25,339 nucleotides of DNA from a virus (Duplodnaviria > Caudoviricetes): positions 1 to 25,339 of the IMG/VR virus record IMGVR_UViG_3300023256_001082, one strand, 5' to 3'. Positions within the stretch are counted from its first letter, which is position 1; the number at the start of each line of letters is the position of its first letter. The translations under genes and the position numbers were made by a program. Positions 886 to 23,260 of the stretch are shown here, in pieces. The notes below the pieces were generated by a model, which saw nothing but the letters and a program-made list of their open reading frames with translations, did no database searches and was not told the DNA's origin.

Positions 886-1084
886 TGGTAATTTCTTTTA
901 TTCTTTCTAAATTTTCTAACGACTGATGTTGACGATTTAAAAATTTCCTAATTATATCTTTATGGTTACAATTTATTTCTCTCAATCCTGCTGGACAATT
1001 GCACTCTAATTTATTTCTTGTCTCCTGAACTATATAATATAAATCTTCTTTAGTTTTTGATTGAACTTCAAATCTTCTATTCAT
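875..1084 (-). CDS. Small SWIM-type zinc-finger protein
   Basis: CNCPAGLREINCNH fits CxC-xn-CxH. ATG at 1084 overlaps the upstream stop; the track start at 1093 is also possible. Confidence 0.7.
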   Translation of the reverse strand: MNRRFEVQSKTKEDLYYIVQETRNKLECNCPAGLREINCNHKDIIRKFLNRQHQSLENLERIKEITNGL

Positions 1085-1865
1085 AATTTTCAAAATAATC
1101 TCTTATGCCAGATTCGACCATATAATCTGGCTTGAATCCCCAATTAAGATTTGCCCTAGTAAAAGTTTGATACTTATCTATATAAGGATTTTCAATGAAC
1201 CTGGGTTCAACCATGACTTCTAATGTTTGAATAACAATTTTCAGTATATCTCTGAAATCTGTTGCTACCCCAGTTCCCAAATCATAAATTCCACTTTTCA
1301 TTTTTTCTGCCATCCTAAAACCCTTAATGATATCTTTGACATAAATAAAGTCCCTTTTATAATCACCTTTAAAAATAACAGGTCTCTCACCTTTTGAAAT
1401 TTGTTCTTTCCACTGAGTAATTACACTAGCATCTTTTCCTTTTGGTTTTTCTTGTTGACCATAACAATTAAATGGTCTCAATCCAACAATTTCCATTTTG
1501 TCAAAATATCTTTTTGCCATTTCGTCAATCATTCTCTTAGATTCACTATAAGCATTTAAAGATCCTTTTCCATTTCCATAAACACTAGCACTTGATGCAT
1601 AAATTAATCTTATTTTGTTATCAAAAGCATATCTTAAAACATTCAAAAACCCCATAATATTATTCCTATACATTTCCATATCATCAGGATATGTTGTACT
1701 AGTATTTGCTGCTAAATGATAAATCATATCAGGTTTCTCTCTTGGAATAAATCCAAGAGAAACATCTGAATTAAATAATTCAATATTTTCTTCTCTATTC
1801 TTTAATAATGTTTCAAGAAGATTAGAGCCAATAAAGCCCTGACCTCCTGTAATTAAATATTTCAT
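1077..1865 (-). CDS. hldD: ADP-L-glycero-D-manno-heptose 6-epimerase-like extended SDR
   Basis: ITGGQGFIGSNL Rossmann motif, YASSASVYG, YSESK (YxxxK), GLRPFNCYGQQEKPKG..ASV, RDFIYVKD and YQTFTRANL match RfaD/HldD. Start placed at the ATGA overlap at 1865. Confidence 0.8.
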   Translation of the reverse strand: MKYLITGGQGFIGSNLLETLLKNREENIELFNSDVSLGFIPREKPDMIYHLAANTSTTYPDDMEMYRNNIMGFLNVLRYAFDNKIRLIYASSASVYGNGKGSLNAYSESKRMIDEMAKRYFDKMEIVGLRPFNCYGQQEKPKGKDASVITQWKEQISKGERPVIFKGDYKRDFIYVKDIIKGFRMAEKMKSGIYDLGTGVATDFRDILKIVIQTLEVMVEPRFIENPYIDKYQTFTRANLNWGFKPDYMVESGIRDYFENYE

Positions 1866-2488
1866 ACTTTTATTATATGACAATTTGGACAAAGTTTTTC
1901 TAAAGCAACAATTACTTTTGGACTATCTTCAAAATATTCTTCGATTCCTAGCCTATTAATCATTTGAGATTTCCACTCAATTTCTCGTTCAATTGTTTTT
2001 TCGTTCAAACTAATCGGATTGAAATAAACTGGATGATTTTTTCTAGTTTCTTCATCAACTTTTTCTATCTCATCAATAGTTCTACTTGTAATCACAGGTG
2101 CACCTTTCTGAGGTCGTATTCCAGCCTTAATGACACCATCATAGTCATAAGCTTGAAACAAGTGTGCCTTACCTGACATATACTTCCTGTAAGAATCTTT
2201 TTCATCATGATGAGAAGAAAATTCGATAATTTGAGCATTCGTCAAACCAGTAAAACGATGCCAAGTATTTGGTTGAATGTGGACTGAATCTTCTGGCTTC
2301 ATTATCCATTTCTTATCATCAACTTCCATTAATATCTTTCCTCTAATGAGATAAAAAACTTCATCTTTCTTTTTATGACAATGAAGACTACAGCGATATC
2401 CCCTATTGAGAATAAGTTTCTTTCCACAATAATCTTCATTCCATATCCACTTTTCCTTACCCCAAACTTTTTCAACTTCTTTAATCAT
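1862..2488 (-). CDS. Cupin (sugar isomerase-like) fused to a HAD-like phosphatase domain
   Basis: N-term EKVWGKE..SLHCHKKKDEVFY..IQPNTWHRF is a cupin metal motif. C-term AYDYDGVI (DxDG) and YFEDS are HAD motifs I and IV. Confidence 0.75.
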   Translation of the reverse strand: MIKEVEKVWGKEKWIWNEDYCGKKLILNRGYRCSLHCHKKKDEVFYLIRGKILMEVDDKKWIMKPEDSVHIQPNTWHRFTGLTNAQIIEFSSHHDEKDSYRKYMSGKAHLFQAYDYDGVIKAGIRPQKGAPVITSRTIDEIEKVDEETRKNHPVYFNPISLNEKTIEREIEWKSQMINRLGIEEYFEDSPKVIVALEKLCPNCHIIKV

Positions 2489-3267
2489 TGATTTAATTCT
2501 CTTAAAGTAATAGCAGAAGTTCCAAAACGAGAAATAACAATTCCAGCAGCTTTATTAGCAAGCTCCATCATTTTTTGTGTATTTGTCAAGCCAATCGCTA
2601 AACAATATATAAGAACTGCTATTACTGTATCTCCTGCACCAGATACATCAATAACTTCTTTTGTGATAGCAGGAACATTCATTTTAAATTCTCCATCTTT
2701 ATAATAATTAATTCCTTTTCCACTTTGAGTAATAAAAGCTTGAGGAAAATTCTTATTTTCAGCTTCTTCATACTCTTTTTTGTTAATCTTTAAAATCTGA
2801 GTTCCCTCAAAGACTGATAAATCTTTCTTTTTAGTATCAACAATCGTTGCTTTTCCACCTTTGATAATTCCCTTATTATAATCTATAAAAGCAATAATAT
2901 CAAATTCTGAAAATGATGGATACTCCATATTAGCCAAATCTTCTTCTCGATAAACTTTTGGTTCATCCACCCTTAAAAGTTGTTGCCTCAAAGCAGCAAA
3001 TCTAGTTTTTACTAATGATACACAATTCTTTGGAGAAACAACAGGAAAGTTAAGCTCCTTTATATAATTTTCATCTACTATAGTAAATACAACTGGCTCA
3101 ATTTCTAAACCAAATAAATTTTTAGCAACATTTAAAGCACCACCTGGACGAGTTTCAGTTGCTCCTACATCAAGAATTGGTACTGGGGCTTCTGGAGAAA
3201 TTCTTTCTACTTCTCCAAGACAATACTTATCTAAAAAACTATCTCCAACTATTGCAACTTTTTTCAT
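2485..3267 (-). CDS. hldA: D-glycero-beta-D-manno-heptose-7-phosphate kinase (RfaE/HldE domain I, PfkB family)
   Basis: VGDSFLDKY..GEVERISPEAPVP, PGGALNVAKNL, KTRF..QQLLRVD and DVSGAGDTVIA. Confidence 0.9.
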   Translation of the reverse strand: MKKVAIVGDSFLDKYCLGEVERISPEAPVPILDVGATETRPGGALNVAKNLFGLEIEPVVFTIVDENYIKELNFPVVSPKNCVSLVKTRFAALRQQLLRVDEPKVYREEDLANMEYPSFSEFDIIAFIDYNKGIIKGGKATIVDTKKKDLSVFEGTQILKINKKEYEEAENKNFPQAFITQSGKGINYYKDGEFKMNVPAITKEVIDVSGAGDTVIAVLIYCLAIGLTNTQKMMELANKAAGIVISRFGTSAITLRELNQ

Positions 3268-4253
3268 GATATATAACCTCCTTTTATTTTTGGTAAATTT
3301 TTATCAAAAGAACGACCTTTAATCTCTTGAATTAATCTAGTGGTCGAATGATGTTCCAGTGTCGGAATAATCACTATTTGCCCACCATAACTTTCTACAA
3401 ACTCATGACCTATTACTGTCTTTCTAGTATAATCACTACCTTTTATCACTATATCTGGTTTTACCTTTTTCATTAAACGCAAAGGATTAAGTTCGTCAAA
3501 AATTTCAACCTTATCAATATATTTTATAGATTCAAGTAATTTCTTTCTCTTTTCTTGATTATTAATGGGCTCTCTTTTTATTTTAGTAGCTGATCTATCT
3601 GAATTCAAGCCCACTATCAATATATCACCAAGTTTTTTGGCTTTTTCGAATAAATAAATATGTCCAACATGAATCAAATCAAAAACACCATTTACAAACA
3701 CAACTTTTTCCTTTCTATATAAAGCACTATAAATATCCTTTCTTACCCCACACTCAACCTCTGGATAGCCTGATTTGATAAGTTTAAATCCTCTTGTCTC
3801 AAAAAATAAATCTAAACTTCTTTTTGTAAAAAAATGTAAATGCTCACCAGTGTCAAATTTAAAATGCTTCCATCCCATTAACTTTTTCCCTTCAGGAAGA
3901 ATTGGAAGTGAAACATAAACATAATTAGTCTTTTTAAATAATTTATTTAATACCCGAAAATCTGGAAAATGTTCCAAAACATCACAGAAAAAAACCAGAT
4001 CATAAAAATCATGCCTAATTCCAGTATATTTTATTGGAAATTTACCCAAATCAAAAGAATCAACTGTTATTCCTTTGGGAGCAAATTTGGTTAAAAAACT
4101 TGCTCCAGCCCCATAATCTAAAGCAATTTTGGGTTTTATTTCTTTAACAAAATCCCAGCGAACTTTATTAAGTATTTTCGCTGTTTTTTCATAAGCTTTT
4201 GAAATTGTTTTCCAATATTCTTTATTATATTGAAAATAAATATTTTTCTTCAT
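3264..4253 (-). CDS. hldC: Class I SAM methyltransferase fused to heptose-1-phosphate nucleotidyltransferase (RfaE/HldE domain II)
   Basis: N-term ALDYGAG, DVLEHF and EHLHFFT. C-term FVNGVFDLIHVGH, VGLNSDRS, KPDIVIKGSDY and STT. Start moved from 4340 to ATG 4253 because 4272-4396 is hairpin-rich. Confidence 0.85.
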   Translation of the reverse strand: MKKNIYFQYNKEYWKTISKAYEKTAKILNKVRWDFVKEIKPKIALDYGAGASFLTKFAPKGITVDSFDLGKFPIKYTGIRHDFYDLVFFCDVLEHFPDFRVLNKLFKKTNYVYVSLPILPEGKKLMGWKHFKFDTGEHLHFFTKRSLDLFFETRGFKLIKSGYPEVECGVRKDIYSALYRKEKVVFVNGVFDLIHVGHIYLFEKAKKLGDILIVGLNSDRSATKIKREPINNQEKRKKLLESIKYIDKVEIFDELNPLRLMKKVKPDIVIKGSDYTRKTVIGHEFVESYGGQIVIIPTLEHHSTTRLIQEIKGRSFDKNLPKIKGGYIS

Positions 4254-4271
4254 ATTGGGAATCTCTTTTAA

Positions 4272-4396
4272 TGGTTGGGGGACATTGGAAAGGTCTAATC
4301 CTCCAACCAATCTTGTATCCTTAAAACCTTTCCATCCCATTGGTTTCGCTGAAACTCCACAAGTAAAGTTTCTCCACCAATGGAAGACTTAAGGAT
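4272..4396 (-). other. Two stem-loops between the capsid gene and the sugar cluster (attenuator or processing site candidate)
   Basis: Inverted repeats 4317-4324/4389-4396, 4337-4344/4376-4383, 4351-4356/4367-4372 and 4272-4282/4299-4309. Confidence 0.55.
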
Positions 4397-7889: not shown

Positions 7890-7918
7890 ATTTTAATTAG
7901 ATTATCACAAAAGGTCAA
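7890..7918 (-). promoter_or_regulatory. Sigma70-type promoter, probably leaderless, for protease/capsid genes
   Basis: TTGACC-17 nt-TAAAAT with the ATG only 6 nt after the -10 box. Confidence 0.6.
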
Positions 7919-10188
7919 GTGTTTAACTTCTCCTTGTGCTTAGCATCACTTTCTACCTTGTCTTTTTTGATTCGATCAATTAATTCTTTTTGTCTTTTTA
8001 ATTTTTTCAAACTCTTTAATAAAGATTTTCCAGTATCTAATCCATCATCCACTTTAACCATTTTAGCAAAATCAACTAACTCTTTAATATGAGCTCCTGA
8101 ATATCCATTTGTATTATCCAATATAGATTTCATTAAACTATCCTCTATTTTTTCTTCAGTCCATTTAGAAATCATAGCTTTCCGCATATCTCTAGTTGGT
8201 AAAGAGAATTCTAATACATCATGAAATCTTCCAGGTCTATCTAACAAAGCATCAGGAAATTCTTCGGGATTATTAGAAGTAAGAATTGTTATCATTCCAT
8301 CATTACCTTTTAATCCATCCATCTCTGTTTTCAATAAATCCATAGAATAAGATTTTAACCATGTATCTATGTCTTCCATAAATAATATTGCTGGTGTCAA
8401 TTTTCTAGCCAAACTAAATGCCATTTTTAAAGCAGTAAGTGGACCAATTTTGTCAAAATCTCTACTCGATACCCAAATAAATGTAGCATCTTTTAAAGTA
8501 TTCATTAAAACTTTCCCAGTTTTAGTCTTTCCAGTTCCAGGCTTTCCAACAAACATCATTCCTCTACTCAACGCATTCTCACCCTTAGCATTTAATTGAT
8601 TTACAGATTTCTTGATACTATCCATTACTTCACTATCCAATATCAAGTCATCAAACACATCACTTGTTTTTTTAAGAAAATCACCACTTAATCCAAATAT
8701 CTCTCCTCTTAAGAAATTATTTTTATTAGTCCATTCATGAACTTTATTTAATAACTCCTTATTCCAATCTTTGTCTTCAATTGTACTTAATAATTGAATT
8801 TGAAGACTATACATGCTTGGTTGAATTTTCATTATAACCTTATTATACCCATCAACTTTATAAAAACTTGTTCCATTAACTAGGAAATCATTAGATTTTT
8901 GAGAATTAAGCTTTATAGTCTCATATTCCAAAGGTACTTCCTTTCCACTATAAGTAAAGTTTCTACAATCAGCTAATTCAAATTCAGACAAAATCTTCTT
9001 AAATCCAGACAAGTAAGTTCCCATCATTGGACTTGGAATTTCGTAACTATTTTGATAGATTTTCTTTACATCGCAATTTAAAAATCTACTAAACATTTCG
9101 TACTCAAAACTAGCCGCTACACTTTCAACCGACTCAACATCAAAGTTTGAAGAAAGACTTAAATTCCATCTAACTCCTTTTTCTTTTATATCATCAGTAC
9201 CTTCTCCAAATGAATATTGAGTTACCTCTTCGAATGATTTTGAAGCTACATGGAATGATCCACCCTTGGCCTGACAATGGCTTCTTGCTGAAGAAGCATT
9301 CCAAGCATCTTTCTTATACCTCATTGATTGTAATTCAGATTTTCCATCCTTAATACCATAAATATGTGCTATACATTTTCCACTACTCTTAACCGCACAA
9401 TTTTTTCTAGCAAATCTATCATATCCACTAGGTGAAGATAATCTACAAGAATGCTCACTTGGATATGGTTTTGATAATTCATCAGATTTCTCAACCTTAG
9501 TTAAGCCTTTTTGTCTGTCAAAAGAAACCACATATCCCTTTTTAGCCAATTTCTCTTCAATTTCTTTAGCTCTATGATCCAAACTATCTACAATTTTATG
9601 TTTTAACTTTCTTCCCAATATCTCTCTTCTAAAAAGAATATGATATTTGATACATTCATCAGAAGGAGCACTCAAGGTATTCCAAAGTCCATGAATTAAG
9701 TCATGTCCTCTCATTAAATCTGCATTTTTGAACTCAGATGGATCTCCGATATCAACATTCTTAAAAACTACACTATCCAACCAAGAATAAACACCATCTG
9801 GCTTAATAATCTTTTTAGGAGGATCAAATTTAGAAATTATCTCAACAGAGTAATAATAGAAGGTTTCTTCATATGGCCACCACAATTTACGCTCTTTTTC
9901 TGATATTTTATGGAATTTTGCCAAATTTTTGAACTCTTTTGTGTTAATTTCCTTAGCTGGTTTTATTCTAATTATGGCCAAAGCAACCTCGTCCTCAATA
10001 AGATATATAGGAATATCAATATATTTTGCAAATTTCTCACAAGTTACTATGGCTTTTTTTTCTTTTTCCCAAATCATAGTCCCATAAGGCTTCAAAAGTA
10101 TCTTTCCAGGTAAAAAAATTCTCTTCCCTGGCTCTAAAAGATCAGGAATATCTGATGGAACTACCATTTTTTTTGTTTGATTAATCAT
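7915..10188 (-). CDS. Multidomain protein with C-terminal classical AAA+ ATPase
   Basis: Walker A GKPGTGKT, Walker B ILFMEDID, SRH TSNNPEEFPDALLDRPGRF. The N-terminal ~500 aa are not confidently assigned. Confidence 0.85.
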   Translation of the reverse strand: MINQTKKMVVPSDIPDLLEPGKRIFLPGKILLKPYGTMIWEKEKKAIVTCEKFAKYIDIPIYLIEDEVALAIIRIKPAKEINTKEFKNLAKFHKISEKERKLWWPYEETFYYYSVEIISKFDPPKKIIKPDGVYSWLDSVVFKNVDIGDPSEFKNADLMRGHDLIHGLWNTLSAPSDECIKYHILFRREILGRKLKHKIVDSLDHRAKEIEEKLAKKGYVVSFDRQKGLTKVEKSDELSKPYPSEHSCRLSSPSGYDRFARKNCAVKSSGKCIAHIYGIKDGKSELQSMRYKKDAWNASSARSHCQAKGGSFHVASKSFEEVTQYSFGEGTDDIKEKGVRWNLSLSSNFDVESVESVAASFEYEMFSRFLNCDVKKIYQNSYEIPSPMMGTYLSGFKKILSEFELADCRNFTYSGKEVPLEYETIKLNSQKSNDFLVNGTSFYKVDGYNKVIMKIQPSMYSLQIQLLSTIEDKDWNKELLNKVHEWTNKNNFLRGEIFGLSGDFLKKTSDVFDDLILDSEVMDSIKKSVNQLNAKGENALSRGMMFVGKPGTGKTKTGKVLMNTLKDATFIWVSSRDFDKIGPLTALKMAFSLARKLTPAILFMEDIDTWLKSYSMDLLKTEMDGLKGNDGMITILTSNNPEEFPDALLDRPGRFHDVLEFSLPTRDMRKAMISKWTEEKIEDSLMKSILDNTNGYSGAHIKELVDFAKMVKVDDGLDTGKSLLKSLKKLKRQKELIDRIKKDKVESDAKHKEKLNT

Positions 10189-13459: not shown

Positions 13460-13489
13460 GGCTTGGGCTTGAGCTTGGGCTTGAGCTTG
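13460..13489 (+). repeat. 5 x (G/A)GCTTG tandem hexamer
   Basis: ggcttg ggcttg agcttg ggcttg agcttg. Confidence 0.9.
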
Positions 13490-13507
13490 TTTTAACTTGA
13501 TCAATAG

Positions 13508-13565
13508 TTTTCCACAAGTCAATTTTGTTTGACTACTTGACAGGGGGGGGTGATTTTGGTATTAT
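13508..13565 (+). promoter_or_regulatory. DnaA box plus rightward early promoter
   Basis: TTTTCCACA at 13508-13516; TTGACA(13537)-17 nt including G8-TATTAT with extended TG. Confidence 0.7.
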
Positions 13566-13605
13566 TAACTATGGAGGGTATAACTATTTTATACCATTAA
13601 AAAAG

Positions 13606-13633
13606 TTTGCTGGAACTTTTAAAAATAAATATG
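13606..13633 (+). repeat. 28-nt leader repeat copy 1 (TTTGCTGGAACTTTWAAAAATAAATATG)
   Basis: Copies at 14344-14371 and 15313-15340 differ by one base; each ends in a start codon. Confidence 0.95.
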
Positions 13634-13837
13634 ACTAAAAAAGATTATGTTAAAATCGCTTCTATTATTAAGGAGGCGTGGAATAAAACAACCGATAAAC
13701 AGGCAGTAAGGCATATAATAACTGGACTAGAAAAAATATTTTCTGATGATAATGAAAGATTTGATATTGAAAGATTTGAAAAAGCCATTGACGATAAACC
13801 GATTATAAACTTTAATTTTTTAAAAGAAAATGATTAA
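13631..13837 (+). CDS. Hypothetical early protein
   Basis: MTKKDYVKIA..FSDDNERFDIERF. Start reassigned to the ATG of the leader repeat. Confidence 0.8.
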   Translation: MTKKDYVKIASIIKEAWNKTTDKQAVRHIITGLEKIFSDDNERFDIERFEKAIDDKPIINFNFLKEND

Positions 13838-13991
13838 GAAAATAAACTGGTCAATGATCCAAAAAGAAAAAAGAGCCAAAGAGATAAGAGATAAAATAAA
13901 GTTGGTTGCTTGTTGGTCCAGTCTGGTATGCTTGGCTATTATCTTGCTTCCTATAATATGGTTGTGCTTGGTTCTCTTGTTAAGTATTTGA
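13830..13991 (+). CDS. 53-aa membrane protein
   Basis: Manual translation MIKKINWSMIQKEKRAKEIRDKIKLVACWSSLVCLAIILLPIIWLCLVLLLSI. Confidence 0.65.
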   Translation: MIKKINWSMIQKEKRAKEIRDKIKLVACWSSLVCLAIILLPIIWLCLVLLLSI

Positions 13992-14044
13992 GATTTTTTA
14001 AGGGGTATTATACCAGCTTTATAATATCTCTTATAAAGATTTTA
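13989..14044 (+). other. Stop-codon-anchored stem-loop, loop CCAGCTT
   Basis: Stem 14001-14012/14020-14031 with two G-U pairs. Confidence 0.75.
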
Positions 14045-14101
14045 AAGTAAGTTAAAAAATATAATAACCCTAGCCGAATAAATAAGGTAAGGGGAAATAA
14101 T

Positions 14102-14275
14102 ATGGAAAAAATAGAAGGGGCAGAGTATAGCATAACATCAATAGATAATTATAATGCCTATGAGCTAGAGGGTAATAATAATTATTTAAATGATGTAAAT
14201 GTTAGTAATCTAAAAAAAGGTGATAAGGTGGTTATAGCTTGGGAGGGAGGAGAAAAAGAAATTAAAATTGGTTAA
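14102..14275 (+). CDS. 57-aa hypothetical protein
   Basis: Manual translation MEKIEGAEYSITSID...EIKIG; AAGGGG upstream. Confidence 0.65.
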   Translation: MEKIEGAEYSITSIDNYNAYELEGNNNYLNDVNVSNLKKGDKVVIAWEGGEKEIKIG

Positions 14276-14326
14276 TACCTTTTATCCTATCCCTAAAAAG
14301 TTTTTGGGGATAGTAAAAAGAGATTA
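14273..14326 (+). other. Stop-codon-anchored stem-loop, short loop
   Basis: CTATCCCTAAAA/TTTTGGGGATAG plus outer stem. Confidence 0.75.
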
Positions 14327-14343
14327 AAAAATTAACTAAAGTT

Positions 14344-14371
14344 TTTGCTGGAACTTTAAAAAATAAATATG
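14344..14371 (+). repeat. 28-nt leader repeat copy 2
   Basis: tttgctggaactttaaaaaataaatatg. Confidence 0.95.
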
Positions 14372-14992
14372 GAAACAATAAAAGTAGTCAATTACAAGGG
14401 TTTTGATATAAAAATATATCAAGATGATAATTTTGAAAGTCCTGAAAATTGGGATAATGAAAATGTTTTTCTAGTCAATTACCATAGGGACTTTTGTGTA
14501 AAAAATGACAAGATCATAACTGAAGATGATGTTAAAAACTGGTATACTGGTAAAAAGATAGAACAACAAAAAGATTATCATATCTTTATGTTATCAATGT
14601 TAAGCCATAGTGGAGTATGGTTATCTCTTGAAAATAATTTTGCTTGTGATGGTGGTGGTTGGGATACAAGCCATATTGGAATTGTATTGGTTAGTAAAAA
14701 AGAAGCAAGGACTAAAAAGAAAGCAAGAGAATTAGCCGAAGGACTTTTAGAAAACTGGAACGATTGTCTATCTGGAAATGTTTATGGATTTATGATAGAT
14801 GAGTTTAATGAAAGTATTTGGGGATTTTATGGGGATATTGATAAGAGTGGAATTATTGATGAAGCAAGAGGAATTATTGATTATGAAGTAAAAGAAAGGA
14901 CTAAAAAGCATTTGAAAAGATTAAAAGCATATATTGGAAATAAAGTGAGCTTGAATAAGAGAAAGCCATTAAGATCAACAATATTAGCTTAA
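14369..14992 (+). CDS. Conserved phage early hypothetical protein
   Basis: 207 aa with HSGV..WDTS..G and L.GNVYGF..ESIWGFYG motifs that I recognise from phage early regions; function unknown. Confidence 0.8.
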   Translation: METIKVVNYKGFDIKIYQDDNFESPENWDNENVFLVNYHRDFCVKNDKIITEDDVKNWYTGKKIEQQKDYHIFMLSMLSHSGVWLSLENNFACDGGGWDTSHIGIVLVSKKEARTKKKARELAEGLLENWNDCLSGNVYGFMIDEFNESIWGFYGDIDKSGIIDEARGIIDYEVKERTKKHLKRLKAYIGNKVSLNKRKPLRSTILA

Positions 14993-15056
14993 TTGTGCTT
15001 TTTGTAAGTTAGCATTATGTCCAGCAACATAGTGCTAACTACAAAGAATATAATTA
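14990..15056 (+). other. Stop-codon-anchored stem-loop, loop CCAGCA
   Basis: 14-bp stem 15007-15020/15027-15040 with one G-U pair. Confidence 0.85.
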
Positions 15057-15094
15057 AAAAGGTCAGATCATAAAAATTAAAAAAGCATAAAAAA

Positions 15095-15253
15095 ATGAAA
15101 CAAGGAATTAAAAAAAGATTAAAATATCTTAAAGAGCAGATTAAAAATGAAAATATAAGTTATGGTGAAATAGCAGAATTACAAGGACTAGCAGAACATA
15201 TTGATAAAAATGATGTTGAATTGAGAGAGTGGACAAGTGTTAAAGAGTTTTAG
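15095..15253 (+). CDS. 52-aa hypothetical protein
   Basis: Manual translation MKQGIKKRLKYLKEQIKNENISYGEIAELQGLAEHIDKNDVELREWTSVKEF. Confidence 0.7.
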   Translation: MKQGIKKRLKYLKEQIKNENISYGEIAELQGLAEHIDKNDVELREWTSVKEF

Positions 15254-15304
15254 TCGGTTGTTAGATAGCATAAAAAAGTTTTATGCTATCCATACAAAAG
15301 ATTA
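15251..15304 (+). other. Stop-codon-anchored stem-loop, short loop
   Basis: GATAGCATAAAA-AAG-TTTTATGCTATC. Confidence 0.75.
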
Positions 15305-15312
15305 ACATAGAG

Positions 15313-15340
15313 TTTGCTGGAACTTTAAAAAATAAATATG
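15313..15340 (+). repeat. 28-nt leader repeat copy 3
   Basis: tttgctggaactttaaaaaataaatatg. Confidence 0.95.
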
Positions 15341-15733
15341 AAAATAAAAGAATTAAAAAAAGCTATTTTAGATAATTACCAAAATAGCAAAAGCAGAAAA
15401 TTAGACAATTATTATTCTGATGAGATTAGAAAAGGTTTAGATGAATTATTGAATTATGCTGATGATACAGAAATTGATGTAAAAGAGATAGAAAACAATT
15501 TATCAGAAATTGAAATATCAGAATTAGCAGATAGTATGGTTGATCCATATACGGCAGATTTATTGAAATGGTATTCTGATAATTTACACAGATGTTATTA
15601 TGCTGATGATTTTATGTCAGAAATGGGTGGTAAAAACTTTATTGAGATTTTGGTGGGTGGTCAATATATGTATTATTCTGAATTGTTGAATTATGTTTTT
15701 GAATTAATAAAAGATGAGTTAGAAAAGGAATAA
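15338..15733 (+). CDS. Acidic protein, possible Ocr-like DNA mimic (antirestriction)
   Basis: ISELADSMVDPYTADLL resembles the T7 Ocr core IHMAADNAVPHYYADIF; acidic, similar size, early position. Confidence 0.5.
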   Translation: MKIKELKKAILDNYQNSKSRKLDNYYSDEIRKGLDELLNYADDTEIDVKEIENNLSEIEISELADSMVDPYTADLLKWYSDNLHRCYYADDFMSEMGGKNFIEILVGGQYMYYSELLNYVFELIKDELEKE

Positions 15734-15795
15734 TTATATTCTTTTAGATAGCATTATATCCAGCAATATAGTGCTATCTGAAAAGGATAGAATTA
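15731..15795 (+). other. Stop-codon-anchored stem-loop, loop CCAGCA
   Basis: 14-bp stem 15746-15759/15766-15779 with one G-U pair. Confidence 0.85.
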
Positions 15796-15844
15796 GATCG
15801 TTTAAGAATAGAATAAATAAGCAAAAACTATTAAATAAATTGCT

Positions 15845-15910
15845 TAATTTGTAATAAGTGTCTATAAATACTTGGTCGTTTAAAAAAGAGTATTTGTAGA
15901 TAGCAAGTTA
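15845..15910 (+). other. Same-type stem-loop with no ORF in front of it
   Basis: TCTATAAATACTT/GAGTATTTGTAGA plus outer TAATTTGT/GCAAGTTA. Confidence 0.65.
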
Positions 15911-16004
15911 TAAATTAAGGTTGACAATCTATTTTCTATCCCCTTATAAAATGTTTGATTAAGGATTAAAAGGTCGGATTATTAAAAATTAAAAGTTAAA
16001 AGTT

Positions 16005-16196
16005 ATGATAACAAAAACAGAAGTCCATAGAGGATTTATTGGAAACAAAAAGGGTTGGGCTTTTTCCGTATATTTTAATAATGCGAATTATCCCAATTTA
16101 ATATCGGCTCTTTTTAAAACTAAAAGAGAAACAAAATCAGAGCTTGAAAGATATCTTGGAACAGGAGAGTATAAAACTTATGGTAGTGCGGAATAA
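16005..16196 (+). CDS. Hypothetical protein
   Basis: ORF track; followed by a perfect 15-bp hairpin at 16197-16231. Confidence 0.7.
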   Translation: MITKTEVHRGFIGNKKGWAFSVYFNNANYPNLISALFKTKRETKSELERYLGTGEYKTYGSAE

Positions 16197-16262
16197 TTTT
16201 TAGGGTATATATTTTGTATATACCCTAAAAAGCATAAAATTAATTAACCTGTTTATTAAAAA

Positions 16263-16451
16263 ATGAAAATGATAATTAAAATAGACCTAGAAAATGATTA
16301 TTGGATCATTAGATTTATTGATAATAATGGTGTAATCATTTTAGCAAAAACAAAGAATTATGAGGTTGCTAAAAGAAAGGCAGAAAAGTTTAGGAGGTAT
16401 TTAAGGGAGGGTAAATTATTAAAAGCAGAAAAGAGTATTGAAAAGTATTAA
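16263..16451 (+). CDS. Hypothetical protein
   Basis: ORF track; A-rich leader. Confidence 0.7.
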   Translation: MKMIIKIDLENDYWIIRFIDNNGVIILAKTKNYEVAKRKAEKFRRYLREGKLLKAEKSIEKY

Positions 16452-16508
16452 TTTTCAAACAAGGTAGCTTTTATAAAAACAGGGTAAAAGCTATCTATTT
16501 GAGAATTA
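16449..16508 (+). other. Stop-codon-anchored stem-loop, loop TAAAAACAGGG
   Basis: Stem 16462-16473/16485-16496 plus outer TAATTTTCAAA/TTTGAGAATTA. Confidence 0.8.
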
Positions 16509-16544
16509 AAAAATAATTGCTTGAAATAGGCAAGTTAATTAAAA

Positions 16545-16688
16545 ATGAAAAATAAAAAACTTTATCGGGCTTTAAGCAAAGATAATTTTCATTTTGATAT
16601 TATCGCAAAAAATAAAGAGCAAGTAAAAAAAGCAATAACCTTTAAGGGATTTGATTTAAAAAACTGGATAATTGAACGAATTAGATAA
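16545..16688 (+). CDS. 47-aa hypothetical protein
   Basis: Manual translation MKNKKLYRALSKDNFHFDIIAKNKEQVKKAITFKGFDLKNWIIERIR. Confidence 0.65.
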   Translation: MKNKKLYRALSKDNFHFDIIAKNKEQVKKAITFKGFDLKNWIIERIR

Positions 16689-16745
16689 TTTTTCAACAAG
16701 GGTTATTATTGTCCTATTAAATAATAACTCTTAATTGGTAAATTA
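16686..16745 (+). other. Stop-codon-anchored stem-loop, loop GTCCTATTA
   Basis: Stem 16698-16710/16720-16732. Confidence 0.8.
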
Positions 16746-16897
16746 TTAGTATTTTTAACAATTTAGCAAAAAAACATAGTGTCTAATTGCTCTTGTAAGC
16801 GATTTATATGGTTTAGATGTAGTTTAGTATAGGATTTGACAGGGGGGTTTATGTCTATCCATTGGGAACTTTTATGTTTTAAACCTAATTTTAAGGG

Positions 16898-16942
16898 TGT
16901 GGAAAACTATCTGTTGACTAGGGGGGTATGATATGCTATTAT
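16898..16942 (+). promoter_or_regulatory. Inverted DnaA box plus second early promoter
   Basis: TGTGGAAAA at 16898-16906; TTGACT(16914)-17 nt including G6-TATTAT with extended TG. Confidence 0.7.
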
Positions 16943-16965
16943 AACCTTGTAAGGGGATAACTATT

Positions 16966-17142
16966 ATGACAAAAGAAAAACTAGAAAAAGAGATAGAAAA
17001 AACAGAGAATATAGTATTAAAAAGGTGGTTTCTTGATAGTAATAGATCAAGAATAGATATATTAACAGGCAATTATTTAGATAGTTATGAGTTTGATAAG
17101 TATAATTCTTTAAAAATTGAGTTGGCGAGTTTGAAAGGATAG
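16966..17142 (+). CDS. 58-aa hypothetical protein
   Basis: Manual translation MTKEKLEKEIEKTENIVLKRWF...; directly after the promoter with AAGGGG upstream. Confidence 0.65.
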   Translation: MTKEKLEKEIEKTENIVLKRWFLDSNRSRIDILTGNYLDSYEFDKYNSLKIELASLKG

Positions 17143-18915: not shown

Positions 18916-19089
18916 ATGGCAAAAATAAAAACATTTAAAGTATCGGTAAATTGGGATACAGATAATCAAAAAGTAGATTTACCAAAAGTGGTAAAAATAC
19001 CTGAACATATTAGAAAAGAGGATAGAATAGCAGATTATCTATCAGACGAATATGGTTGGTGTGTTAATAGTTATGTTGAATTAGAATAG
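18916..19089 (+). CDS. 57-aa hypothetical protein
   Basis: Manual translation MAKIKTFKVSVNWDTDNQKVDLPKVVKIP..IADYLSDEYGWCVNSY. Confidence 0.75.
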   Translation: MAKIKTFKVSVNWDTDNQKVDLPKVVKIPEHIRKEDRIADYLSDEYGWCVNSYVELE

Positions 19090-19188
19090 GTTTAATCCAT
19101 TAAAATTGAGATAATCTAATAACGCACATTGCTTATGGGTTTCAAAATTAAGGTGGCTAAATTATCTCAATTTTAAGGGATTAAACTT
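19088..19188 (+). other. Long stop-anchored inverted repeat
   Basis: 28-bp stem 19088-19115/19161-19188 (26 WC, 1 G-U, 1 mismatch) with a 45-nt loop. Confidence 0.8.
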
Positions 19189-19381
19189 GGTATAAGTGGT
19201 ATAAAAAAAATAATTAAATTAGAAACTTCACAAAGGTTATCCTATAAGAAGTTGTCAAATCTATTATAATAATTATCATACTTCCTTGCTTATCAAGTTT
19301 GATCCCTGATATACCCAATTTATTATAGTGATTTACTGGAAATTAAATATAAACTATCACTTAATTTCCTAAAAAGTTAAG

Positions 19382-19552: not shown

Positions 19553-20206
19553 ATGACTAAAAAAACAAAAAATCAAGGCACTTTATTAAATCGCTTTAAT
19601 TTCCTAATCCATACCTTTTGCGATAAAACCCCAACAAGACCTGAAATCAATGGTGTATTTATAAGTCCAAAAGAAACCTGTGCCACAGATACCCATAAAA
19701 TAATTAAGGTGGATACTCCAAAAGACCTTGACTCTAATGATTATCCAGTTATCCCCAACAGACCAAAGCCATTAAGCGATTTTAAGAGCTTTATTCTACC
19801 AAAGGAAAAAACAAAAGATGTTTTAAATATATTTAATAGTCAAAAAAGTTCTGATACTTTACCAATTTTAGATAATGCTGTGATAGTTAGAAATGGTAAA
19901 GAAATGGTTGAGATAGGCAAAACCGATCTTGAAAGTTTTAATTCGGTAATGAGTAGAAAAATTGAGGGGGATTTTCCAAACTATAAAGAGTTGTTTGTTG
20001 AAAGAGGTAAGTTTATAGAAATCCTAGTGAACCCAAAGCTCTTAAAAGAGATAGCAGATTTTTATATTAGTTTTGTTGATACTTTTGTTGAAGAAATAAA
20101 AATTAAAGTTCCAGTAAAGACAGACGAACCAATTAGATTTTATGGAAAGAGAAAAAGTGGGCAAGAAGCAAAGGCAATGCTTATGCCTATCAAAGATAAT
20201 AAATAA
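19553..20206 (+). CDS. DNA polymerase III beta-clamp-like protein (truncated, about two domains)
   Basis: TRPEINGVF..ATDTHKI, IEGDFPNYKELF and C-terminal LMPIK resemble DnaN central and C-terminal motifs. Confidence 0.7.
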   Translation: MTKKTKNQGTLLNRFNFLIHTFCDKTPTRPEINGVFISPKETCATDTHKIIKVDTPKDLDSNDYPVIPNRPKPLSDFKSFILPKEKTKDVLNIFNSQKSSDTLPILDNAVIVRNGKEMVEIGKTDLESFNSVMSRKIEGDFPNYKELFVERGKFIEILVNPKLLKEIADFYISFVDTFVEEIKIKVPVKTDEPIRFYGKRKSGQEAKAMLMPIKDNK

Positions 20207-22773: not shown

Positions 22774-22810
22774 CTTCTTGGGAGTTATAAATTAAGCCCG
22801 TTTATTTAAA

Positions 22811-22972
22811 ATGCCTATTTATAGATTTTCTACTAATAGAATAAATTACTATGATGTAGAAGCCCCAAATCAAGAGAAAGCATTAGAAAAGTTAGAAAAA
22901 GATCCTTTAGAATATTCTGCTGATATCTATGCTGAAGATCCAGAATTTGAGTTTGAAGATATTGTTGGATAA
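22811..22972 (+). CDS. 53-aa hypothetical protein
   Basis: Manual translation MPIYRFSTNRINYYDVEAPNQEKALEKLEKD... Confidence 0.7.
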   Translation: MPIYRFSTNRINYYDVEAPNQEKALEKLEKDPLEYSADIYAEDPEFEFEDIVG

Positions 22973-23031
22973 CTTACAAACTGGCTACTTAACTATAATA
23001 CGGGCATAGTTGAGTATCCTCTTGGGAATTA
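22970..23031 (+). other. Stop-codon-anchored stem-loop, loop AATACGGGC
   Basis: Stem 22986-22996/23006-23016 with one G-U pair. Confidence 0.8.
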
Positions 23032-23052
23032 TAAATTAACCCGCACTTTAAA

Positions 23053-23202
23053 ATGGAAAAAGAATATAGTTATGTTGTTAAAATAGAATTTAGCGGACAA
23101 ACAACCGCAACATCTAAACAACAAGCAAAAGACATAATTAAAGATGATTATAAGCAAGAGTATGGATTAGACCTAGATAATAAAGAAATTACTATTGAGT
23201 AG
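23053..23202 (+). CDS. 49-aa hypothetical protein
   Basis: Manual translation MEKEYSYVVKIEFSGQTTATSKQQAKDIIKDDY... Confidence 0.7.
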   Translation: MEKEYSYVVKIEFSGQTTATSKQQAKDIIKDDYKQEYGLDLDNKEITIE

Positions 23203-23260
23203 TTTCCAAACTAGGTAGCCATTACAAAAAGTGGGGTAATGGCTATCCTTTTGGGAGTTA
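23200..23260 (+). other. Stop-codon-anchored stem-loop, loop AAAAAGTGGG
   Basis: Stem 23214-23225/23236-23247 plus outer TAGTTTCCAAA/TTTGGGAGTTA. Confidence 0.8.

Follow-up and report, generated by a model that had tools for sequence, protein, structure and literature searches.

Leader words and stop-codon hairpin tips complementary to them flank small genes in a tailed phage

The window analysed here, a 25,339-nucleotide (nt) stretch of viral DNA (Caudoviricetes; IMG/VR record IMGVR_UViG_3300023256_001082, positions 1 to 25,339), carries small genes that are each bracketed by a short word in the leader and by a hairpin at the stop codon with a tip complementary to that word. The window was a fragment of a tailed phage, with portal, prohead protease and Mu-like capsid genes on the minus strand. 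The sign of the GC skew flipped near 13 kb, and the plus strand carried small open reading frames (ORFs) between a near-consensus promoter (13537-13565) and a second one at 16914, a layout from which we infer that the array consists of early genes. All eight units between the two promoters closed with a hairpin (z between -3.6 and -7.8 relative to base shuffles); in seven of the eight the fold began with the first stop-codon base and closed on TTA, and in the eighth it began three bases later. The tip was complementary to the unit's own leader, a match termed a kiss below, in five of the eight units. The hairpins of the other three (after 14275, 15253 and 16196) were non-kissing, and these genes had leaders that were Shine-Dalgarno (SD)-like or contained GGTC. 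Contigs from two DNA runs, possibly the window's own source, covered 13500-17000 with no differences listed.

An earlier note on this DNA had described loops complementary to the leader of their own gene, and each pair was found exactly where it had been placed: TGCTGG leaders at 13608, 14346 and 15315 with loops CCAGC at 14013 and CCAGCA at 15021 and 15760, and two pairs of other sequence, CCTGTTT (16248) with AAACAGG (16477) and AATAGG (16525) with CCTATT (16713). The pair at 14013 was present, but with 5 bp and not 6. The first bracket did enclose two ORFs, an organisation also present in the related loci L116 and L121. Left out of that account were the three non-kissing hairpins within its range, whose tips mismatch their own leaders, the fact that the hairpins have the stop codon as their 5' foot and its complement as their 3' end, and two further pairs at 22796/23000 and 23044/23228, the latter weaker and AU-rich. 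The five kissing stop hairpins had folding energies of -15 to -28 kcal/mol (z -4.4 to -7.5), with none of 200 shuffles as good. The leader hairpins were confirmed in part, as the TGCTGG and AATAGG leaders folded, though weakly (-4.6 to -5.9 kcal/mol), but the CCTGTTT leader had no stable hairpin (-0.3 kcal/mol), making this pair one of loop to single strand. The words ended 8-17 nt upstream of the ATG, as had been said (measured 17, 17, 17, 8 and 14 nt); the note had likened this position to that of an SD or standby site, but the words did not lie at an SD and were too variable for pairing with ribosomal RNA (rRNA). Two of the non-kissing hairpins, at 14294-14305 and 15272-15283, shared a AAAAAGTTTT tip that also matched the TGCTGG leader hairpins along their 3' arm (scores 13-15); this match is probably incidental, as the tip is self-paired and recurs ahead of other leader types.

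For 12 units of the window chosen by hand, own-leader scores summed to 153, compared with 110 for permuted pairings (p = 5.5e-5), and p was 1.1e-4 when the three TGCTGG copies were merged into one. Related phages were then surveyed using 30 loci found through the portal gene, 80, 80 and 2 found through the family of ORF 14369, and five longer records. Once loci exceeding 40% GC and duplicated gene ends had been removed, 1555 genes gave 174 strong stop hairpins. With a kiss defined as a Watson-Crick score of 14 or more (about 5-7 bp), the tip matched the leader of its own unit in 29 of the 174; permutation gave 3.8 on average and never more than 13 in 10,000 trials. Own leaders therefore won over the controls that had been proposed, namely other leaders (next, 6/156; previous, 6/155) and shuffled ones (3.1). 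An earlier pass gave 23/146 own-leader matches versus 8/146 for a same-sense control, and 22/118 versus 8.45 under within-locus permutation. The 29 cases stemmed from 14 loci and 22 word strings, some of them overlapping. Locus L017 holds what are predicted to be five consecutive orthogonal pairs, each unit scoring 15-19 on its own leader and at most 12 on the others. Stems of at least 5 Watson-Crick pairs flanked the leader word in 15 of 30 leaders, where 3.1 were expected, and the word ended 4-21 nt upstream of the ATG (11-19 nt in 24 of the 29). On the reverse strand of L007, the stop hairpins after the genes at 13742 and 14914 carried the tips GTGCTGGA and ACCAGCAA, which could kiss each other.

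Three pattern searches added little to this survey. The exact leader search matched only copies of the window's own phage, so that it gave no covariation. The stem-pattern search returned 130 unique strand-matches in 119 loci, only six of which followed a stop codon; one of the six was the window phage and one more a stop-footed hairpin with no kiss, leaving this search uninformative. The leader-pattern search gave one already known unit among six matches, the others being chance.

Complementarity was kept where the sequence of homologous brackets varied, as had been claimed for unlike pairs within the window. Two-sided changes were found from TGCTGG/CCAGCA to TACTGG/CCAGTA, from TGCTGG/CCAGTG to TGCCGG/CCGGCA at 81% protein identity, and from AATAGG/CCTATT in the window to AGCAGG/CCTGCT in the homologous bracket of L116, which held an unrelated ORF; TTGGTAG/CTACCAA and CTGGTAG/CTACCAG formed a further homologous set. 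These changes were scored per sequence, with no column-based pair count, because whole-unit alignment with MAFFT shifted the leader word by one column. Among orthologues of ORF 14369, 10 of 13 hairpin leaders with neither SD nor GGTC kissed the first downstream stop hairpin, compared with 3 of 20 others (p = 2e-5); the test used those 63 of 102 rows in which the start was well placed, and the window supplied one of the ten kissing cases. These comparisons make cis pairing of word and tip on the mRNA very probable. That the pattern arose from chance matches, or survives from an old inverted duplication with no present function, is most improbable. The words are short, copied brackets inflate the counts and three of the 29 positives are probably AU-rich chance matches, but permutation maxima lay far below the observed values, the compensatory changes already contradict this explanation, and stop hairpins in small-genome bacteria of the presumed host type (18 of 710 genes) included no kissing case.

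Several features suggested that the hairpins are structures of the transcript, in keeping with the RNA character assigned to them before. The coding strand folded better in 183 of 247 stop windows selected without regard to strand (-3.65 versus -0.92 kcal/mol in shuffles). Stems contained 215 G-U pairs and 16 A-C mismatches, a count biased by choosing the set on the coding strand, and the kissing helix of the TGCTGG family contained 7 G-U, no A-C and 2 other combinations in 84 cells, representing few independent events and limited by the regular expression used. The foot lay at offset 0, on the stop codon, in 63 of the 174 hairpins, and the stop codon was TAA in 120 of them. Counted from the first base of the stop codon, the apical stem began after 10-16 nt in 45 of 77 cases, and it was 11-14 bp long in 37 of 77. 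Strand bias, together with anchoring to the stop codon and ATG, points to RNA and to translation. Rfam gave no match at gathering score in the window (best E 0.29, outside the region) or in seven related loci.

The brackets also outlasted the genes within them. Hairpins 68-98% alike flanked unrelated proteins, and in the 11 pairs viewed similarity generally stopped at the ATG and resumed at the stop codon or within a few bases of it. ORF 15338 and a 106-aa ORF at L116:4023 shared 37 identical leader bases and a hairpin 82% identical around unrelated proteins. ORF exchange between ATG and stop was seen between window 15293-15795 and L116:3980-4410, between window 16500-16745 and L116:4970-5290, and between L017 and L020, L125 and L126, and L119 and L121, with or without a kiss. 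This pattern is what would be expected if pairing on single-stranded DNA or on an RNA intermediate joined cassette ends for excision or exchange, as in integrons or guide-paired transposons, and the coding strand folded better with DNA parameters too (63 of 77). We consider this explanation improbable. Non-kissing brackets swapped ORFs as well, and some joins retained older stop codons stacked at the hairpin foot, which would argue for imprecise recombination followed by selection and not for a dedicated enzyme. The fixed spacing to the ATG fits translation. The tyrosine recombinase family PF00589 was found in none of five relatives, four of which were fragments, and serine recombinase/resolvase, Y1, IS110 transposase and reverse transcriptase families had no match in the same five, although the host could supply an enzyme. 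One of the five had terminal repeats, and when 69 of its 78 longer proteins were compared with Pfam (nine structural or sugar-pathway homologues were omitted), no recombination enzyme of those families appeared. Contigs from eight DNA runs contained no joint removing or circularising a unit at a bracket; because rare variants are lost in contigs, this does not show that such joints are absent. Integron attC sites have the consensus core RYYYAAC...GTTRRRY. The brackets resemble integron cassettes in forming arrays of single ORFs, each with a long imperfect hairpin near the stop, between which ORFs are shuffled. They differ in that the attC core pair occurred in 0 of 174 hairpins, no integrase was found in the five relatives, folding favoured the coding strand, and the tip pairs with the leader.

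The earlier note had also envisaged a closed mRNA for each unit. Pairing with the own leader is supported computationally, but separate mRNAs are not supported by the layout of promoters and terminators. There was one promoter for the array, and no U-tract terminator was called on the plus strand in 13990-16750, so separate units would need processing. The hairpins are thereby also set apart from intrinsic terminators, which have a U-tract behind the stem. T7 and SPO1/SP82 early genes have RNase III sites between them, and the brackets share with these sites long intergenic stems, internal loops and a strongly promoted early region; to our knowledge, own-leader complementarity and stop-codon anchoring are not features of those sites. 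The window stems (21-29 bp with internal loops) amounted to about two helical turns of duplex with an internal loop, as in such sites. The long stems could thus be RNase III sites that split the early transcript, with pairing protecting the unit or timing its decay and having no direct effect on initiation, which we regard as unlikely as a full account, though it is compatible in part with the closed loop favoured below. The uniform apical stem, the scarcity of T-rich sequence after the stem (9 of 174; A-rich, 46 of 174) and the presence of RNase III in five of five small-genome bacteria searched agree with processing, which the stem geometry suits as well as it suits the closed loop. RNase III forms transcript ends, and single cuts leave stabilising 3' hairpins (PMC3867540); hbs of Bacillus subtilis (PMC7821165) offers a precedent for stabilisation. 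Processing leaves unexplained why the foot lies on the stop codon and why ribosome-recruiting motifs are excluded from kissing leaders. If RNase III instead released the apical hairpin as a small RNA acting in trans on leaders with matching words, uniform apical stems and the orthogonal words of L017 would make sense, but words shared within the window, L116 and L008 would cross-react, and the partner is the unit's own upstream leader and neither the next nor the previous one; this alternative is highly doubtful.

The distribution of leader classes suggested what the pairing may do. Kisses occurred in 2 of 42 units with GGTC leaders, 2 of 22 with SD leaders and 25 of 110 with neither (Fisher p = 0.009), so that 25 of the 29 kissing units had neither by the patterns used. 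A strong SD was present in 2 of 219 genes of close relatives, and in two relatives whose neighbouring genes do use SD (27 of 202) the kissing leaders were still free of it. Orthologues alternated in leader class; GGTC-led orthologues (L119, L121) had drifted tips, and a kissing-bracketed gene of L116 had SD-led orthologues. The kiss takes the place that a recruiting motif has in other leaders. For this reason the role we favour, though tentatively and at somewhat less than even confidence, is a positive one in translation: a closed loop in cis aiding re-initiation. Pairing of tip and word would tether the ribosome terminating at the stop codon near the start codon of the same unit. That ribosome would melt the lower stem only, leaving the apical stem and tip folded; the tip could stay paired, since the apical-stem start given above lies near the +9 edge used for ribosome termination structures. 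The stop hairpin would hinder onward scanning and re-initiation downstream, much like such a structure, and the tether would raise re-initiation on the unit's own start with no ribosome-binding motif. A bracket of this kind could serve as a reusable expression socket, with new ORFs recombined in between ATG and stop. The earlier description of a stop codon set beside the start codon is loose, as the tip is 23-29 bp away from the stop codon.

Several observations weigh against such a positive closed loop. The majority of stop hairpins (145 of 174) do not kiss, indicating that the hairpin has a job of its own, and the 29 cases are not independent, as brackets are copied modules. Pairs were broken in some homologous units (a bulge in the first unit of L116; a terminal mismatch in L120). 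Words repeated within genomes (three TGCTGG in the window, four in L116), and with the tip 23-29 bp from the stop codon, partners could be exchanged on an uncut transcript. An automated comparison of G-U pairs and A-C mismatches in the kissing helix was undiscriminating (29 versus 28 at threshold 14). The exclusivity of leader classes could be spatial, the leader hairpin and GGUCG occupying overlapping positions, and among the bacterial precedents in PMC7821165, icaR involves repression, RNAIII a delay and hbs stabilisation, so that activation has no example there.

A position some 11-19 nt upstream of the ATG is near the edge of the initiating ribosome, and most words end there. The same pairing in cis could repress or delay initiation once the hairpin has been transcribed, blocking loading of the 30S subunit and limiting possibly toxic early proteins to a short burst; icaR and RNAIII (PMC7821165) provide precedents. 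We rate this alternative unlikely. Neither an SD nor GGUCG lies within the word, whose sequence is free to vary, leaving no fixed positive element to occlude, and in orthologues kissing leaders replace leaders with positive motifs. Membership in icaR-type repression was rejected: the 3' segment matches its own 5' leader, but the paired segment is not an SD.

The second leader class centred on the motif itself. AGGTCG occurred 72 times in leaders versus 2.6 in shuffles, and GGTC peaked 20-34 nt before the ATG (118 versus 35 for a control word). Motifs of the AAGGTCG type were seen in the window at 15060, 15971, 19527 and 24738, and in related loci. A wobble test of GGUCG was undiscriminating (AGGTTG 14, AGGTAG 14). 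A 0.4-Mb genome included a contig with a homologue of ORF 14369 and the AGGTCG motif, although the contig could be mis-binned phage; 30 relatives of that genome measured 0.3-0.9 Mb. In 11 of 11 readable 16S genes (16S loci L342-L353), the loop of helix 26 (h26) held UCGACCC, complementary to GGUCG, and the anti-SD was kept in one of the 11. The motif was enriched before the ATG in four genomes lacking the anti-SD (94 versus 49 control) and not in a genome with it (4 versus 18). In two genomes its peak lay 15-34 nt ahead of the ATG (11 of 13 and 10 of 17), the contigs being partly picked from matches, and it marked only a few percent of genes; a smaller first host sample had no positional GGTCG peak (4 of 258 genes). 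Parcubacteria are reported to have lost the anti-SD while conserving h26, the role of which is described as unknown (PMC9297842). Pairing of the GGUCG leader with h26 is thus a candidate alternative signal for ribosome recruitment, for which no description was found in the literature searched, and the host is probably a small-genome, SD-poor, Patescibacteria-like bacterium. The gene at 5072 in L186 had a tip, TCCGACTT, that mimics the h26 loop in being complementary to GGTCGG in the gene's own leader. Termination upstream ribosome-binding sites (TURBS) and the hepatitis C virus internal ribosome entry site are similar in that mRNA pairs with the apical loop of helix 26 before the start (PMC11921876); those involve eukaryotic 18S rRNA, whereas GGUCG is predicted to pair with the 16S h26 of small-genome bacteria. 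The combined picture, in which closed-loop brackets and GGUCG-h26 pairing would be two routes to re-initiation and initiation in SD-poor hosts, with brackets as sockets for ORFs, is a speculative one that we hold at well below even confidence.

The earlier note knew of no comparable phage system, and this stands only for the layout, since cis pairing of 5' and 3' untranslated regions is already known for Staphylococcus aureus icaR and RNAIII and for B. subtilis hbs (PMC7821165). In those RNAs, too, sequences flanking one ORF pair in cis; they are single genes, however, and icaR pairs with an SD, while the phage brackets are recurrent, use at least 18 unrelated words, have a hairpin on the stop codon, lie in a polycistronic region and have no SD in the leader. 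Plant-virus 3' cap-independent translation elements (3'CITEs) similarly bring a 3' element to the 5' leader by pairing and aid initiation, recruiting eukaryotic initiation factors at genome ends (PMC3662671). Loop-mediated 3'-to-5' pairing with covariation was found here at the level of sequence, but the bearer is a tailed DNA phage and not a eukaryotic RNA virus, which excludes membership; the system is bacterial, has one bracket per gene or gene pair, and no factor-binding domain was seen. Ribosome termination structures (Chemla et al. 2020, PMC7518266) are likewise stable structures directly after the stop, at the edge of the terminating ribosome, as found for the phage hairpins. They are a statistical fold with no sequence-specific tip, whereas the phage hairpins are 21-29 bp long, include the stop codon and carry an address. 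No description of this layout was found in the literature searched, though such hairpins could appear in the motif tables that accompany surveys of structured RNAs. The brackets are, on this reading of their sequences, a variation on long-range 5'-3' mRNA pairing. Should closed-loop re-initiation be shown, they would be a categorically new system in bacteria: it has so far been a eukaryotic and plant-virus concept, and the few known bacterial pairings repress, delay or stabilise. A bracket of about 30 nt plus 60 nt is natural, modular and covarying, and could yield orthogonal expression parts. The brackets also illustrate how phages may take new early genes into ready-made expression sockets, and GGUCG-to-h26 pairing offers a candidate initiation signal for bacteria that lost the anti-SD.

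Table 1. Promoters, bracketed units and hairpins of the window
Feature	Coordinates	Strand	Remarks
Sigma70-like promoter heading the array	13537..13565	+	11/12 consensus matches, extended -10; putative function
Leader hairpin 1	13601..13620	+	displays TGCTGG (13608-13613)
Unit 1	13631..13991	+	two overlapping ORFs, 68 and 53 aa
Stop-footed hairpin	13989..14044	+	loop CCAGCTT 14013-14019, 5 bp to leader 1
57-aa ORF	14102..14326	+	purine-rich SD-like leader; non-kissing stop hairpin 14273-14326
Leader hairpin 2	14337..14358	+	displays TGCTGG (14346-14351)
207-aa ORF	14369..14992	+	phrog_6186, no assigned function; family of the orthologue test
Stop-footed hairpin	14990..15056	+	29 bp, loop CCAGCA 15021-15026
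GGTC-type leader and 52-aa ORF	15060..15304	+	AGGTCA 15060; ORF 15095-15253; non-kissing stop hairpin 15251-15304
Leader hairpin 3	15308..15327	+	displays TGCTGG (15315-15320)
131-aa helical ORF	15338..15733	+	no assigned function
Stop-footed hairpin	15731..15795	+	28 bp, loop CCAGCA 15760-15765
GGTC-type leader and 63-aa ORF	15971..16242	+	AGGTCG 15971; ORF 16005-16196; non-kissing stop hairpin
Leader word CCTGTTT	16248..16254	+	no stable leader hairpin
62-aa ORF and stop-footed hairpin	16263..16508	+	hairpin 16449-16508, loop 16475-16483 ending AAACAGG
Weak leader hairpin	16514..16541	+	displays AATAGG (16525-16530)
47-aa ORF and stop-footed hairpin	16545..16745	+	hairpin 16686-16745, loop 16711-16719 with CCTATT
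Next promoter-like site	16914..16942	+	tightly packed genes after it, mostly without stop hairpins
Extra unit	22796..23019	+	GCCCGT 22796; 53-aa ORF 22811-22972; weaker hairpin 22983-23019, loop ACGGGC 23000
Extra unit	23044..23260	+	CACTTT 23044; 49-aa ORF 23053-23202; stop-footed hairpin 23200-23260, loop AAAGTG 23228

Other features of the window touched on the array and its surroundings. A guess that ORF 15338 encodes an Ocr-like protein found no support, and a fold search with ORF 14369 gave no match. An extra hairpin with a GGTCG loop at 15860-15901, inside a 270-nt gap without any ORF of 40 aa, is possibly an empty or decayed bracket. A short tandem repeat (GGCTTGGGCTTGAGCTT units) lay at 13460-13489, and a run of eight G separated the -35 and -10 boxes of the 13537 promoter, with a similar G run at the 16914 site. 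A 39-bp stop-footed hairpin at 19087-19189 closed a second operon and had no match to its own leader. The dispersed repeat GAACCTGTGTTCA (family D4) occupied intergenic gaps at 19378, 20430, 24709 and 24971, and its palindromic arms suggest an operator. The product of 19553-20206 was distantly sliding-clamp-like (phrog_947, E 8e-7). On the minus strand, a 757-aa protein with a C-terminal AAA domain (7915-10188) stood between the portal and prohead protease genes, where relative G001 had a 1566-aa ORF. Beside the capsid gene, minus-strand ORFs at 1077-4340 were nucleotide-sugar-like (heptose-type kinase, epimerase and cytidylyltransferase, with motifs judged by eye), and G001 had a glycosyltransferase/LicD cluster at that position.

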